Part shown: positions 7,030 through 34,698 of the stretch, piece by piece
How the letters are laid out: each line of letters opens with the position of its first letter
How positions within the stretch are numbered: the stretch's first letter is position 1
Source: Eledone cirrhosa
Lineage: Eukaryota
DNA length: 64,000 bases
Direction of reading: 5' to 3'
Assembly: GCA_964016885.1 (NCBI GenBank)
Contig: OZ024742.1
Location: 103,974,001-104,038,000, forward strand
Position numbers and translations under genes: made by a program
The notes under the pieces: generated by a model
Seen by the model: only the letters and a program-made list of their open reading frames with translations
Database searches by the model: none
Told to the model about the DNA's origin: nothing

Positions 7030-8440
7030 GTAAATCTGGCTTTGTTTTTTCTACTCAAGGAATATGAAGAATACATAATTGGCTCACAGGAGGACAAGAA
7101 TACAAATCTAATCCATAACTTCTTTGTGGATCACTCTATGCCAAGAACATAAATGGGATGAAGAAAAACCTTGACCTGGTTACGACATTCTCGAAAGATA
7201 TAGGAATGGAGTTTGGCCAGGATAAAGGTTCATATATATGGCTGTAAAGCGAGGAAAAAATACAAGCCAATCTAGCAACATTTGTATCAATGGCCTAACT
7301 GTTTCACCGATATCTGATGAAGAGTGCTACAGATACCTGGGGATAGATGAGAATATATCCTATGATGGTATTTGTAACAAGGAACACGTAACCAGAGAAT
7401 ATTACACCCAATTAAGAAAAATATGGTCATCTGAAATCTCTGCACACAATAAAACACTGGCTCATGATGTGTTTCTGTGCCTGTCCTAACACCAACATTC
7501 AGAGTACTCGATTGGATGATAGATGAAATCCAAGCTATCAATGTTAAAACCTGAAAAATCTTAAACAACACCGGAAATGTTCACATCAGTAGACTGCCTC
7601 TACCTGAAATGTAAACAGGAAGGCAGAGGCTTAACATCAATCTAGACAGCATTTGAGTGTTGCATCATATCGCTCCTACAACATCTACAAAATACCAAGT
7701 GTAGGAGCCCATCTACAGAGCAAGTTTGTCTGCATGAGACAGATAAGATCATGAGAGTTGGGAAGGAGCTCCTTGAAGAATACTCCCTGCATGATAATTA
7801 AAAACTCACAACCAGGGAAATTGCCCAGCAAAACTGCAGTGAATCCATGGATGAAAAACTGCATGCTTATCAGCAAAAAGTCATGCATGGATATGTTGCC
7901 AGGAAGCTCCAAAGTGAGAGTAATATAGATAAGTAAACTAGTCTATCTTGGACCAACAATCACTGTAGGATATGCTTTTGCAATCCGAGAACAGGAAATC
8001 AATACAAAATACCTGATTCTCAAAAGAGATAGGGATACAGGCAAAATACCTAGGTGTGACAACAAATGCAGACTGTCCAAAGATGTCATCATGGTACTAT
8101 CTACCCATGAGGCATGATGTAGTGGCCAAAACACTATACAATGCAATCTGTAGAAAAGATAACCCCGACAATAAACATATTAAAAGTAACAGCGATGTGG
8201 AAGACATATAATATGAAAGAGTACTGATGGAATGTTACAGTTAAAACCCCAGTAAAATGCAAGCATAACAGACCAGATATCGTAATATGGGACAGTAGTG
8301 GAAGTCAGCTACCCAGCAGATGCAAATATGATGTTAAAGATTAGGAAAAAGAGAACATCTATGCAGAACTAATGAGGAATCTGCAGATACTCCACACTGA
8401 CTATACCTTCAGATTTATACCTGTGATCATTGGAACAAGA
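7030..8440 (+). mobile_element. Decayed non-LTR element with RT and RLE (R4/Dong-like)
   Basis: Fragments YRYLGIDE, GGRGL, AIREQEI, KCRL, HNRPDIVIWD across many stops and frameshifts. Confidence 0.7.
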
Positions 8441-8866
8441 AATAGAATTAGCTGTATACATATTTCTTGTTCAGGCCAAGTCAGCTTACAGTTCCACAGG
8501 CAAATAAGGCTAATCAGCACATGTATGCAGTCAATAGGCGTCAAAACTAAATGTTTCTGCCTATATTGAGTTGCAGCAGAAAACGAGGTACAGGGGAACA
8601 TTACTTTGATAACGATGATCAGTCAGAAATGGCCGTTGGTAATTTCCCCCTTGCATCTGCTGGAACTCCACCAGCTTCCAAAATTCATAGTTATAGGCTT
8701 TGAAATGTTTATTCATAAACATACTGTATATCATTCGATATACAAAATACACACACATATATACATATATACATACATACATCCTTGGTAGCGTGGAAAA
8801 TAGACATTAAATAACTCATATACATATACATACTCATATACATATACATATACATACACACACACA

Positions 8867-8925
<59 letters not shown>

Positions 8926-9172
8926 GGAAAAAATGAAACGAAATTTCATTTCTCACTCTTAATACGGCTGTTACTTAAATATAAGTATGTATACGTACAT
9001 ACATATATGTATACAGACGTACAGTAGTATGTATATATATATACATACATGCACACATATGGATTCACTGCACATTTATTATAATGCTCGGTGTGTTTGT
9101 AAACAAACATCCCGTATTAAGCCGTAGTGTCTAGCAACCATCGTTGCTCATTTGTTCAACACTGACAAAGGA

Positions 9173-9215
9173 ACGCTGTACTAGTTTCAAGCTTATTAGC
9201 TATCGTCAGCAACGT
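9173..9215 (-). ncRNA. Minimal type I hammerhead ribozyme
   Basis: Reverse complement reads ACGUUG-CUGACGA-U AGCU AAUA AGCU U-GAAAC UA GUA-CAGCGU. Confidence 0.75.
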
Positions 9216-9472
9216 ATACCTTCCTGCCAGATGATTGAACGTCTGAAAGTATATACTTTCCTTATGCATATTAACGGCTGAGCAGCCTAATTTGCATATC
9301 GAGTGAGTTAATCGGCCGGGGTACCGAACACGATAAACGGAAAAAATGAAACGAAATTTCATTTCTCACTCTTAGTACGGCTGTTACTTAAATATAAGTA
9401 TGTATACGTACATACATATATGTATACAGACGTATATACTTCCAGACGTTCAATCATCTGGCAGGAAGGTAT

Positions 9473-9515
9473 ACGTTGCTGACGATAGCTAATAAGCTTG
9501 AAACTAGTACAGCGT
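9473..9515 (+). ncRNA. Minimal type I hammerhead ribozyme
   Basis: Stem I ACGUUG/CAGCGU, core CUGACGA...GAAA, stem II AGCU/AGCU, palindromic stem III ACUAGU, predicted cleavage after GUA (9509). Confidence 0.78.
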
Positions 9516-9901
9516 TCCTTTGTCAGTGTTGAACAAATGAGCAACGATGGTTGCTAGACACTGTACGGCTTAATTCGGGATGTTTGTTTACAAACACACC
9601 GAGCATTATAATAAATGTTCGATGAATCCATACGTACATATATATATATGTGCATGTATGTATATATATATACATACTACTGTACGTCTGTATACATATA
9701 TGTATGTACGTATACATACTTATATTTAAGTAACAGCCGTACTAAGAGTGAGAAATGAAATTTCGTTTCATTTTTTCCGTTTATCGTTTTCGGTACCCTG
9801 GCCGATTAACTCACTCGATATGCAAATTAGGCTGCCCAGCCGTTAATATGCATAAGGAAAGTATATACTTTCAGACGTTCAATCATCTGGCAGGAAGGTA
9901 T

Positions 9902-9944
9902 ACGTTGCTGACGATAGCTAATAAGCTTGAAACTAGTACAGCGT
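9902..9944 (+). ncRNA. Minimal type I hammerhead ribozyme
   Basis: Identical motif 429 bp downstream of the 9473 copy. Confidence 0.78.
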
Positions 9945-10145
9945 TCCTTTGTCAGTGTTGAACAAATGAGCAACGATGGTTGCTAGACACTGTACGGCTT
10001 AATTCGGGATGTTTGTTTACAAACACACCGGGCATTATAATAAATGTTCGGCGAATCCATACGCACATATATATATGTGTGCATGTATGTATATATATAT
10101 ACATACTACTGTACGTCTGTATACATATATGTATGAACGTATACA

Positions 10146-10192
<47 letters not shown>

Positions 10193-10735: not shown

Positions 10736-10779
<44 letters not shown>

Positions 10780-10783
<4 letters not shown>

Positions 10784-11196
10784 AAAAGAAGTCGAAAAAT
10801 GCAACTGGAGTCTTTTTAAGAATATTTAGTTGTTTCCTTTACCAGTTTCACAGTTGTTATGCTTTTCAAAAGTAAAATTGAGATGGAGGGTTTGTGGTTG
10901 CAAGACAAACAAAAAACCCTCCATCTCAATTTTACTTTTGAAAAGCATAAGAATTGTGAAACCGGTAAAGGAAATAAATAAATATTCTTAAAAAGACTCC
11001 AGTTGCATTTTCGACTTCTTTTCCTTATACTTTCACCCGTGTAGGACATCTTGTTTTTTTCTTTTTCTTTTGATTTTTTTTATAAAAAAAATCTCATTTT
11101 CTTATCTATATATATAAGGAAAAGGAGTCGAAAATGCAACTGGAGTCTTTATAAGAATATTTATTTATTTCCTTTACCAGTTTCACAGTTCTTATG

Positions 11197-11200
<4 letters not shown>
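10780..11200. repeat. Inverted plus direct repeat element with degenerate hammerhead core (pLTR-like)
   Basis: ~10780-10894 is inverted at ~10914-11028, with a third partial copy at ~11116-11200; flanked by (TA)n. Confidence 0.7.
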
Positions 11201-12122: not shown

Positions 12123-15100
12123 ATGAATGTAGGCACCTTAAAGGGTCGCTCTAACGAGGTTGTAGAAATGCTCGAACGTAAGGAGGTCGATGTTTGTTGT
12201 ATAGCGAAATACTAGTGTGTATGAATGTAACAATGCGTATAATATTTAATTAACAATCATGGATATATATAGAACAGTATAGTTGCCATGTCAAAGAAAT
12301 AGATGATAGAATGAAGCAAAGTTAGTAGTTACCGTTTTGATTGCCAGGCAAACGCGGCTGGCAGAAGACGCCTGGCGAAGGCCAGGCGCCGGAAGGGCAA
12401 ATGAGAGAGTGAGAACTTAAAGTTGTTAGTTTTATAGGGTTCTGACCGGAAGTTACAGAAAGGGTTCTACTTCCTGTCTAGATGGTGTTAATCTATTGGG
12501 GTTGTGAGTGTTCAAACCAGGGAGACAACTCCTGCTACAGTTGTATTAAAGAGACCAGGTGGAGGGGTGGGTCTGCTAGATTCATTGAGGGTAAAAAACG
12601 ATGCTATAAGCTTTTCTGGGTGGGAAATGACGATGGGCTGGGTGGAGTAGGAATCATGGTAGCAGAAAAGTGGGCAGATAAGATAATAGACGTAAATAGA
12701 GTGAACGACAGAATAATTAAAATACGACTTGTCCTCAATAGAACTACGGTGACAGTAATATCTGCGTACGCACCCCAATCCGGACTGCCCGGCACTATAA
12801 AAGACAGATTCTATGAGACACTGATGCTCACTACCTCCCAAATAACCGACAGTAACTATATAATTATTGCAGGCGACCTAAATGGTCACGTTGGACAACA
12901 TTGTGACGGCTACGACGAAATCCATGGAGGCTATGGGTTTGGTACTAGAAATGAGGAAGGCTCCAGAATCCTGGAATTCTGTGACGCAAATAACCTAACT
13001 ATCTGTAACACTAACTTCAAAAAACGTGACAATCACCTGATCACCTATAGACCGGGGGAACACACAAGCCAGGTAGATTATATCCTTACCAGAAGACGTG
13101 ACAGAGTGTCTGTTGTAAACACTAAATCCCTCCCCCATGAAGAATGCACCTCCCAACATAGACTGATAATTAGCGACCTAATAGTCAGGACGAGACGTAC
13201 TAGACAACAGAAGAGGACTATCCTCAGGAGAAAAATATGGAAGCTAAAGGACCCCACAGCCAGAAATAAATTTAAAAGCATACTACCTGATGCTTTCGAC
13301 AGTAAGGAAGAGCAATTAGAGTCGTACAATATAAAGAAGCAGTGGGAATTCCTGAAAGCAAACCTGCTGATGGCGGCAGACGAAGTCTGTGGCTGGAGCA
13401 GGCCTGTAGGCAGGAGGAGAGTAACATGGTGGTGGAACAGTAAGGTGGAGGGGTCAATTAAGGCCAAAAAGCAGGCTTGGAAAGTATGGCGGGATGGGGG
13501 AAGTAGAGAAGACTATCAAGTGGCCAGGAGGGAAGCTAGGAGACAAGTGTACTTCGCAAGAAGGGAAGCAGAGGAAAGAAAGTTCAAGCATGTTCTACAA
13601 CGCGAGGACCAAAAACGTGAGGTGTTCAGGATTGCTAGGCAATGTGTCAAGGAAAACCGTGATATTGTCGGGGAGAAGTGTGTACTTAATGATGACGGCG
13701 TACTTGCCATCACCGACGCTGATAAGAAGGTAGCTTGGCAGTGTCACTATGAAAGGCTACTAAATGAGGAGAATAAATGGGAGAAAGACAGTCTCCCCCA
13801 CATCGACCCAATAGAGGGACCAGCAGTGTTAGTCGAGAGTAGTATAATAAGTAAGGCAATCAAGGATATGAAGACGGGTAAGGCAGCTGGGCCTTCGGAA
13901 ATAGTTGCTGAGATGCTGAAGGCATCTGGCACGGTGGGACACACCATGGTCACCCGGATAGTTAACCAAGTCGTACAGAATGGGGTTGTTCCGAAGGACT
14001 GGCGTCGCAGCATCATCGTTAACTGTTATAAGGGTAAAGGAGATGCCCTAGATAGGAGGGAGTAACTATAGAGGCATTAAATTAATCGACCAGGTCATGA
14101 AGGTCACGGAAAAAGTAATAGTGCAACTAATCAGAGAGAGAATTGACCTCGATGAAATGCAGTTCGGGTTTGTGTCAGGCAAAAGTACCACAGATGCTCT
14201 TTTCATTGTACGACAACTACAGGAGCAGTACCTAGCTAAAAGTAAACCCCTATACTTAGCTTTTGTCGACTTGGAGAAAGCCTTCGACAGAGTCCCCCGT
14301 TCCATTATCTGGTGGGCTCTTAGAAAACTAGGTGTCGACGAATGGCTTGTGAGAGCTATACAAGCCATGTATAAAGAAACAGTCAGCAAGGTTAGAATTA
14401 ACAACGAATATAGTGAAGAGTTTAACGTAAAAGTTAGCGTCCATCAGGGCTCTGTTCTCAGCCTCCTACTATTTATTATTGCCCTTCAGGCTATAACAGA
14501 GGAGTTCAAGACCGGCTGCCCATGGGAACTCCTATACGCAGATGACCTAACACTCATAGCTGAATCAATGGCCGAGCTAGAGAAGAAATTCCAAACATGG
14601 AAGCACGGCCTAGAATCAAAAGGCCTTAAAATTAACCTGGCTAAGACCAAAGTTCTAGTTTGTAGGAAAGAAAATAAGGTGGCGGTCCCTTCCGGGAAGT
14701 GGCCATGCTCAGTGTGTAGGAAAGGCGTAGGTAGAAACTCCATTTTGTGTCCCAAATGCAAAGTATGGGTGCATAAAAGATGTAGTGGGATCACAGGTAA
14801 GCTAACTAAGAACATAGATTTCACATGTGGCCGGTGCTCTGGTGCAATAAGTAGCAGCAAGTGCCCACAAAATACTAGCTCTTTCAACTGCGCAGAGGGC
14901 TCTATAGAAATAGTGGACAGCTTCCGTTACCTGGGTGACAAAATCAGCAGTGGGGGAGGGTGCTCTGAAAGTACAGTAGCTAGAGTCAGAACTGGATGGA
15001 AAAAGTTCAGAGAGCTTATACCACTATTAGCCGCTAAAGGGTTCTCCCTAAAAATGAAAGGCAGGTTGTATGATGCCTGCATACGAACAGCAATGTTGCA

Positions 15101-15491
15101 TGGCAGTGAGACCTGGGCATTGTGTGCAGAGGATATACGCAGACTAGAGAGGAACGAAGCTTGCATGCTCCGCTGGATGTGTAATAGTAATATACGTGAA
15201 CGGCAAAGCATAAACGAACTAAGGAAAAAATTAGAAATAAGAGGGATCAGATGTTGTTTACTCGAGAGAAGGCTACGTTGGTATGGACACGTGATGCGCA
15301 TGAAAGACGATAGCTGTATAACAAAGTGCAGGGCAATAAAGATAGACGGTAGCCACGGAATAGGCAGACCCAGAAAAACCTGGGACGAGCTGATAAATTC
15401 CGACCTCACACACTTACACCTCTCCAAGACAATGTCACTGGACCGAGACCTTTGGCGGTACTCAGTAATAGAGAAGACCCACCTTACCTAA
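12123..15491 (+). pseudogene. RTE polyprotein pseudogene (LTR insertion at 12200-12539, frameshift near 14060)
   Basis: Removing the LTR restores DVCCIKET. A ~4-bp insertion before NYRGI splits ORFs 12482-14065 and 14097-15491. Confidence 0.9.
12200..12539 (-). mobile_element. Solo LTR (Gypsy-like) with 4-bp TSD GTTG
   Basis: GTTG at 12196-12199 and 12540-12543; minus strand reads TGTAGCAGG...CGCTATA; similar to 3527-3914. Confidence 0.88.
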
Positions 15492-32200: not shown

Positions 32201-32855
32201 AGAGGTAGTGGTGGTAGTGGTAGTGTTTACAATGATCCTTATGATAGGAATGTGAATAGCTATAACTGTGATGATGGTGATGATGATATTGAAGATAGAG
32301 ATAATTGTAATGGAGAGGAGGGGGTGTTTGCGTGCTTCTAGTTAAAAAAAGGTGTTTGAATGGTGTTAAATAAACCATTAAAGACAGTTGGAGCCGTAAA
32401 CATTATATAAATGTATGTGTTTCTGTATGTGTGTGTGTAACTAGGTGTTTATATTTGTCTATGGGTGTATGCGTGTGTATAAATGTAGGTGTATGTGTGT
32501 GTGTGTGTATATATATATATGTACACACACACATATGGTCACAGACAAATACATGCACCTAGTTAAACACACACATAGACATATTCTGGTGTGCAAGTAT
32601 TAAAAAGGGAGAGAGAAAAAAAAAGAAAGAAGGATACATAGATAAAGAGACAGGTAGAGAGAGTGTTGCCAAATATTATTCCCCTCTCTTTCTCTCCCAG
32701 TCACCCAGAAACTCGAATGTCGCCCTTAGCTCACCGGACAGGTTACACAGAGAGAAGATAGCAGTAAAGAAAGATATTCTCTAGCAGCAAGTTTTGGAAT
32801 AAACACAGCTGTCTTTGGAGAACAGCTTTACACAAGATCTAGTCAACTGGAGAAC

Positions 32856-34474
32856 ATGAATCAACTGAACAGTTACTCTTCGGGTAGAACATTCCCTGTT
32901 GAAACAGAATGTACTGAACAAGGCAACATATCTCATACCATCAACATAAACTTACCCACTGAAATAACTTCCAAGAACTTGCAGGTCGAGGGAATGGATA
33001 ATGTAGAGAACTCTTTGGTGGATCTCAACTCTGTGAAGGATAAACAGCAAAAAGAAGAAAATGAGTTAGAATTAGGTGATGAGGAATCATTTAAAATGTC
33101 TCCCACTTGCTCAGTAGAAGAGGATAAAGACTTAGTACAGTCTTTTGAATCAGACAATGATACAAAAAGACAAGAAATACAAGCCAATATATGTTATTCT
33201 GAATTTAGTGAAACAGGAAAGAAAATGGAAGAATGTTCATCTATTTGTAGTGGTTCTAACCATCTTCCTGTGTCTGACTCCATGAGCATTTTGGATGAAG
33301 AAGATAACCTGACACAGGTTTCTGATAACAGACCATCATCTAGTGAAGGAGAGTCTTCCAGTTTAAAGGACGGTGATATGCCATTGACTGATATTTCTAA
33401 AACTGATTCAATAGATAACTCTGAAGACATGAATTCTGCTTCCAATAACCAGGATAGCCAACCTGAAGATGTATTATATAATAAAATGGAACAAGAAACT
33501 GCTTTTATAAGTGCTGATTATGAATCTTCTGAGAACTGCTGTGTTGGAGACTCTAGCTCTGAAAACAATATTAAACCATGTTCTTCTGGTTGTCAATATG
33601 ATGAAATATCAATGCAGAATGGCTCAAACTGTAACAAATCTCCTTCTAATACAACTAAACACTCTGTTAGTTCACCAGTTCATTTTGAGAAAAAAACAAA
33701 AAAAAGGGTAATAACACACATTCTTACAAAAACTCCCCAAAAATGTAAAAAGAAAACACTGGACACGGTAAAAAAAGATACTTTAACAACTGATGGAGAC
33801 ATGTCTATTGTTGTAGAGGAAGATAATTCTTCACCTATTATTGCAAATGGATTGTATTTAAATGGAGACACAAGAAAACGTTCTAGTGAATCATTATTCA
33901 CTCGTCATCAACAAAATTCTTTGAAAGATGCCAAGAAATCTAAATATGTTTCAAAGACATCTAATACTGGCAATAGAGAGCAAAACTTCCTTGTTTCATT
34001 AGAAAGTACTTCCAGTGACTCAGAACTTTCCAATTCATCTGATGAGGATTACTATAGTCCACAAAAATACCAACAATGTAAAAAACATACCCTAAACATT
34101 TTTGTTTTGTTAGCGACTGTCTTTGCACTTGTTACAGGAGCATGTCTTCGGTCTGTGATTTCAGCAAAAGATTACCGTACTATTCTCTACATACGATTTC
34201 CAGGCCAGTTATTTTCTAATGTATTACAGATGTTAGCCATACCATTGCTTGTCTCTAGCCTCATATCGAACCTTTCATCACTCAGTATAACAGTATCACG
34301 TCATATCTGCCTACGTACACTGTTGTATTATCTTGCCACTTCATTAATAGCATTAATGACAGGAATCATTCTAGCAGTTACTATCCAACCAGGGACATTC
34401 AGCCTCAATTTGCCCATTGTGAAGCAAAGTATTCCAAAGGTCAACACTCTGGATATAATATTAGACATACTCAG
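32856..34474 (+). CDS. SLC1A: SLC1/EAAT-family amino acid transporter, first coding exon (long N-terminus, TM1-TM4a); symbol is family-level only
   Basis: C-terminal part matches SLC1 motifs (FPGQLF..VLQML.IPLLVSSLI, YYLATS.IA..GIIL...IQPG, LDILR). Donor AG|GTAAGT at 34475, acceptor at 32700, in-frame stop at 32727. Confidence 0.9.
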
Positions 34475-34698
34475 GTAAGTAAAACATTTCGTTCATTTAA
34501 AAAAAAAATCCTTCCATTACCATATTTCTCACAAAAATCGTTATCTATAGACTTCTAAGTCATTTAAAATTTTAATATTGTTACAATGATTTCAAATCTG
34601 CCTTGCAACTCAATTCACATATCAAAACAAAATCTGAACCAGATGAACAGAGGGTATAATATAACTTACTTTTCCTACCCTTAACTCGGAATGAGTGA

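Follow-up and report, generated by a model that had tools for sequence, protein, structure and literature searches.

Architecture of the locus

The locus lies in a 64-kb window, the whole stretch of DNA analysed, and consists of two arms of one repeated unit that meet 5' to 5' and both extend outwards into (TA)n. The right arm (9432-10152, plus strand) contains ~1.7 units and has a short, tail-less end, with TA sequence blurring its boundary to ~10157. The left arm (8920-9434, minus strand) contains ~1.2 units; the junction truncates it at the 5' end, while its 3' end (8920) carries a tail into (TA)n. This tail, of the type seen in Penelope-like elements (PLEs) and about 56-60 nt long, occupies 8920-8978 (minus strand), is found on the left-arm end only and includes the hairpin GAAAUGAAA/UUUCGUUUC. 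The head-to-head junction (9432-9434) is formed by the 3-nt microhomology GTA, in agreement with an inversion point that a preliminary description of this DNA had placed near 9434. The 429-bp period given there also holds: the direct repeat 9432-9728/9861-10157 measures 297 nt, has a spacing of 429 and is 97% identical, and the inverted arms 9126-9434/9683-9991 match at 99%. As also described, the repeat is embedded in (TA)n, at 8870-8922 on the left, where no target-site duplication is readable, and at ~10150-10187 on the right, flanking the right arm. Tandem and inverted arms are both present, as proposed, but they amount to ~1.7 units on the plus and ~1.2 on the minus strand, not to three full units.

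The motif CTGACGA occurs at 9479 and 9908 (plus) and at 9203-9209 (minus), with no others in the window, and each copy is followed by stem II, GAAA, the palindrome ACTAGT (at 9503, 9932 and 9180) and GTA. These are the cores of hammerhead 1 (9457-9526, plus, including an extended stem I; core 9479-9509, predicted cut after 9509), hammerhead 2 (9886-9955, plus; core 9908-9938, predicted cut after 9938) and a minus-strand hammerhead (9173-9215; predicted cut after 9179). All three ribozymes named in the preliminary description are therefore present and identical over core and stems, but only two share a strand, the minus-strand copy having no second ribozyme beside it. The two consecutive complete hammerheads on the plus strand (9479, 9908) are the arrangement expected of a retrozyme. 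From cut to cut, the predicted 429-nt monomer (9510-9938, plus) has 36% GC and a longest ATG-ORF of 68 aa; no ORF of at least 100 aa was found at the locus, and the RT plus GIY-YIG ORF of an autonomous EN+ PLE is absent from it.

Within the unit, a TA-rich segment (9625-9725, plus) varies in length among copies, and its 3' edge is the site of the short end. The octamer ATGCAAAT, reported earlier at 9820, is there (9820-9827, plus) and again at 9290 (minus); it is also present in a 465-bp relative family and is possibly a promoter element. AATAAA lies downstream of the ribozyme, as stated (9610 and 10039, plus; 9075, minus), but is probably not a signal, since the 465-bp family and one subfamily copy are without it. 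The unit is found at very high summed depth in three sequencing runs of one sample, in which the locus is spanned by no piece.

A predicted type I hammerhead whose stem III is weak

The motif contains CUGANGA, GAAA and NUH in the proper order together with stems I and II, as in a type I hammerhead. Stem I had been described as 6 bp long; the first 6 bp are as described, but the stem runs on past a UAU/U internal loop for ~10 or more pairs. Stem III is indeed the palindrome ACUAGU in all three copies, forming a single A-U pair that closes CUAG. At its base, stem II has a U-U mismatch in all three copies, as was also noted before. G10.1-C11.1 is the usual pair at this position of a hammerhead, and it is absent here.

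Covariation was scored over 12 hand-picked related sequences from the subfamilies and the 465-bp family, whose relatedness limits the test. In this set, 91.7% of cells pair, compared with 35-47% for slid partners, and 7 of the 23 stem pairs have changed on both sides. Stems I and II covary across subfamilies and families around an invariant core, which supports the proposed hammerhead fold. The stem II base is U-U in 8 of the 12 rows and G-C in the 465-bp relatives. Conservation of the core itself (2.1% vs 2.7% changes) was set aside as evidence because the loci had been chosen by the core. An Rfam scan, suggested earlier as a check, returned no hammerhead at the locus even at E up to 10, and the sub-threshold matches were only miRNA-like, on hairpins and TA runs.

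In the monomer, stem III costs ~5 kcal/mol, whereas a 6-bp intermolecular duplex gives -4.8. Since stem III is unfavourable in the monomer and favourable between molecules, a double hammerhead is likely the active form, as the energy model predicts. The need for a dimer, as previously proposed, is thus supported by these energies and by published systems (PMC4209133, PMC7229834). According to PMC4209133, the canonical metazoan type I form has a 6-bp helix I, a 4-bp helix II and a short palindromic helix III, while the min-HHR of PLEs has a helix II of 7-8 bp, a short helix I and no helix III. The motif resembles the min-HHR in being type I, in its predicted dimer need and in its palindromic stem III region, but it differs in its 4-bp helix II and long helix I with an internal loop, which are those of the canonical form. 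Measured against these definitions, the sequence motif belongs to the canonical metazoan type I form, its stem III being weak, and the earlier label "minimal" does not apply.

The monomer is predicted to be highly self-paired. A 429-nt circle folds at -135 kcal/mol, compared with -91 +/- 4 for 25 shuffles, with 67% of the positions paired, as is usual for retrozymes, and the fold is more stable for the plus than for the minus strand (-135 vs -115.5 kcal/mol). TA palindromes give part of this fold; the non-TA part alone reaches -100 vs -70 +/- 5 kcal/mol. Positions 242 and 302, which pair in the predicted stem around the tail end, have jointly changed from A-U to G-C in one subfamily.

A very large family

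Copies were counted by pattern searches of the 3.0-Gb genome, each with a control. The exact 32-nt core has 9,768 copies, compared with 0 for the reversed control, and a relaxed core pattern has 28,100 matches, compared with 2, so the repeat is not a chance one and the count called for earlier reveals a very large family. A pattern that also covers the 465-bp family gives 41,642 matches, compared with 50 in the control. Subfamily units measure ~420-430 and 460-540 bp. The separate 465-bp family is collinear with the 429-bp unit; the palindrome of stem III and the octamer are conserved in it, as is the hairpin that precedes the tail end. At high identity, the 429-bp unit also occurs in contigs of three other organisms.

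Insertions have two fixed 3' ends and a one-sided tail

End statistics were taken from 54 insertions, derived from 60 loci after 6 overlapping duplicates were dropped. The 3' ends of the arms fall mostly (67 of 78) into two windows, unit positions 205-223 and 262-276, which together make up 7.9% of the unit and hold only 6 of 75 5' ends. By class, the 78 3' ends comprise 37 short, 30 tail and 11 other. The two fixed 3' sites lie about 56-60 nt apart, the position of the short end being blurred because it sits in TA-rich sequence, and the 5' ends are scattered. Two arms are present in 24 insertions, always head-to-head; 16 of these pair one tail with one short end, 8 have one ragged arm and none has two ends alike. 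At least 8 nt of TA lie beyond 57 of the 78 3' ends; among one-armed copies, by comparison, 5 of 27 5' ends have such a run. In the 465-bp family, the ends fall at the two sites homologous to these.

The insertions therefore combine a head-to-head inverted arm, a one-sided tail, scattered 5' ends and a microsatellite target, as in insertions mobilised by PLEs, for which tandem or inverted layout, a one-sided tail and microsatellite bias have been described (PMC3846280, PMC8557442). According to PMC11167929, a PLE protein cleaves both strands of AT-rich DNA and extends them, starting reverse transcription at two internal sites on the RNA; the distance between these sites gives the tail. The end statistics of the 54 insertions support mobilisation by a Penelope-like enzyme, as suggested before.

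Two insertions have features of their own. At L111, the same 27-nt flank lies beyond both arms, each in its own direction, forming an inverted target duplication. L181-L182 (G000:C1:5738327-5752443) belongs to the 465-bp family and has two arms, one of which holds 31 ribozymes; the variants among its units recur with a period of ~3, which points to later local expansion.

Penelope-like elements in the genome

The genome contains many ORFs with RT, a C-terminal GIY-YIG and a CxxxxCxxC linker, whose sequence we take to be of Neptune type, given how PMC8557442 describes the clade. Two Neptune-type families show tails of roughly 55-60 nt. The search for GIY-YIG returned 10,596 candidates, of which 150 were scored and 70 of these examined. 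No pLTR homologous to the unit was seen among the 70 loci, except separate copies across TA runs; L102, L085, L007 and L202, considered as PLE hybrids, were rejected, as TA runs separate the unit from the PLE and are read as shared targets. When seven PLE 3' regions were compared with the unit using shuffled alignments, z was 2.0 or less. A pattern for the tail plus altered base gave 196 matches, and the 30 inspected contained no homologous pLTR. None of the ORFs found was directly attached to a unit.

One Neptune-type family (L094, L095, L100, L104) has in its terminal repeat a hammerhead with a U-U base and a palindromic stem III like those of the unit; in L094 there is no sequence match to the unit. 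By build only, this family is a candidate helper. L092 and L091 are Neptune-type elements with long ORFs, their frames measuring 938 and 1096 aa, in which the scan found no canonical hammerhead. At 10760-11200 of the window, head-to-head pLTR-like fragments with an extension on one arm and TA flanks were noticed by eye; they resemble, again by eye, the terminal repeat of the Neptune-type PLE in L092.

Mechanism and alternatives

We consider it highly probable that the locus is a two-armed, head-to-head insertion of a retrozyme that a PLE enzyme, probably of Neptune type, copied into (TA)n. In this process, a multi-unit copy would be transcribed, and neighbouring hammerheads would pair through ACUAGU and cut after GUA, releasing 429-nt monomers that a host ligase may circularise, by analogy with axolotl and mussel retrozymes. 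The PLE protein would then nick both (TA)n strands, and reverse transcription would start at two internal sites of the unit, giving one arm with a tail and the other without. Both cDNAs would stop at random and be joined 5' to 5' by microhomology. A more specific version, offered tentatively and with some doubt, is that a dimeric Neptune-type enzyme cuts both (TA)n strands and primes two RTs at conserved structured sites on the ribozyme-made circle, so that copying for more than one round yields head-to-head arrays. If so, these insertions would document in the genome how animal retrozymes pass from circle to DNA, a step long proposed, and a 429-nt RNA would suffice as a minimal substrate for integration by PLEs.

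Whether the template was a circle or an uncut linear multimer is a near even question. With a probability that we place somewhat short of one half, PLEs mobilised the repeat from uncut linear multi-unit transcripts, the hammerhead being a weak or vestigial pLTR feature, no circle being formed and long arrays growing by unequal exchange; this departs from the retrozyme reading above only in the cleavage and circle steps and in the RT template. Alleles were compared at 33 subfamily columns in 66 insertions, with 12 loci of the longer subfamily left out. Units of the same arm agree in 1964 of 2114 comparisons (93%) and units of opposite arms in 1084 of 1115 (97%), whereas units of different insertions agree in 40,934 of 64,566 (63%); median divergence is ~3% within loci and 8.8% between them. 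This agreement within insertions argues against a linear template, as do the nearly uniform young arrays L112 and L113, the stems that covary across families and the retention of the ribozyme in a unit that has lost all coding sequence. On the other side, the left arm ends in a unit with alleles of another subfamily, a 2-nt deletion at unit 54-55 and A at 66, that are found in neither right-arm unit, and L004 shows the same order; in no more than 9 of 27 insertions is the opposite arm the strictly nearest sequence. Such mosaics could be products of gene conversion or template switching. Variants also recur with a period of ~3 in the 31-ribozyme arm of the 465-bp family and alternate A-B-A-B in L183, and because of this periodicity long arrays were rejected as proof of rolling-circle copying. 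In addition, hammerhead mutants had no effect on PLE insertion in vitro, where cleavage is dispensable (PMC11167929).

It is improbable that the units are merely orphan pLTRs of 5'-truncated autonomous PLE copies and not mobile on their own. PLE copies are mostly 5'-truncated and head-to-head (PMC8557442), and Xenopus retrozymes have been derived from pLTRs (bioRxiv 10.64898/2026.07.22.740005), but the arms extend through several complete units uninterrupted by coding DNA, 28 of the 30 copies chosen for an altered base after the tail run on into the next unit, and no ORF was seen directly attached to a unit. For the present copies this origin is already largely refuted. More improbable still is a satellite or fold-back DNA spread at the DNA level, by recombination or in a MITE- or Helitron-like manner, with the hammerhead due to chance or a fossil. 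The inverted arms, the TA flanks, the periodic variants of long arrays and the missing Rfam match fit such a repeat; it is opposed by strand-specific fixed 3' ends with scattered 5' ends, arms that are always head-to-head and never have two equal ends, compensatory changes in stems I and II, and the better fold of the plus strand.

Relation to known elements

The comparison set of metazoan non-LTR retrozymes comprised those of PMC7229834 (axolotl Rtz331 and Rtz353, mussel, coral) and of bioRxiv 10.64898/2026.07.22.740005. Like them, the repeat is a non-coding tandem unit of 150-450 bp with low GC and one type I hammerhead per unit, present in thousands of copies and co-occurring with PLEs, which supports the retrozyme-like family of the preliminary description. 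A weak helix III and a U-U stem II base are described from two axolotl retrozymes, which cleave efficiently only as dimers and accumulate as circles (PMC7229834); the stem III of the unit is like that of HHR_Amex1, with one pair and a palindromic tetraloop, and its U-U base is like the published variant HHR_Amex2. In contrast to the metazoan retrozymes compared, its cleavage triplet is GUA. The unit, known here from its DNA, would be an invertebrate retrozyme with an amphibian-like stem III predicted to require a dimer, against the statement that "most invertebrate HHRs cleave as monomers". In the parts consulted, the retrozyme papers mention neither two-armed insertions joined head-to-head, nor fixed ends with a tail on one side, nor targeting of (TA)n.

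These latter features are shared with EN+ PLEs (Neptune, Penelope/Poseidon, Naiad; PMC3846280, PMC8557442, PMC11167929), whose copies are described as partial tandems with an inverted arm truncated at its 5' end, a head-to-head junction and a tail at one end; these elements likewise have TA-rich targets and carry a hammerhead in their repeated part. Unlike EN+ PLEs, the unit is without an RT or GIY-YIG ORF and has no homology to the PLE families sampled, and its tail is ~56-60 nt long, compared with the 30-40 nt usual for PLEs. The element fits an animal non-LTR retrozyme at the sequence level and appears to work like a non-autonomous PLE, not an autonomous one. The 429-bp family is likely a further animal non-LTR retrozyme mobilised by PLEs.

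A link between retrozymes and PLEs has been proposed before (PMC7229834, PMC7761336), and pLTR homology is the argument for it in bioRxiv 10.64898/2026.07.22.740005, where only one of nine predicted Xenopus retrozyme dimers cleaved in vitro. Because the retrozyme class and its suspected PLE partnership are already published, we regard the locus as ordinary for its genome. Its contribution is evidence at the level of insertions, where the two fixed ends, the tail on one side and the TA targets connect the retrozyme with PLE chemistry. The fixed ends predict the RT start sites on the retrozyme RNA, so the reintegration of animal retrozymes becomes testable with the existing in vitro PLE assay. 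Our search of the literature on cephalopod and octopus retrozymes, hammerheads and Neptune/Penelope elements returned no paper on the 429-bp family; Repbase, Dfam and most subscription papers, which lay outside this search, may catalogue the repeat.

Other features of the window

Three further features, all on the plus strand, were recorded in the window. At 12482-15491, a LINE with endonuclease, RT and PHD domains extends over two long frames. A decayed fragment at ~7500-8450 shows an RPDIV motif by eye and resembles the C-terminus of an R4/Dong-type element. The long open frame at 32730-34478 ends in a sodium:dicarboxylate symporter domain and is probably an exon of a host transporter gene.
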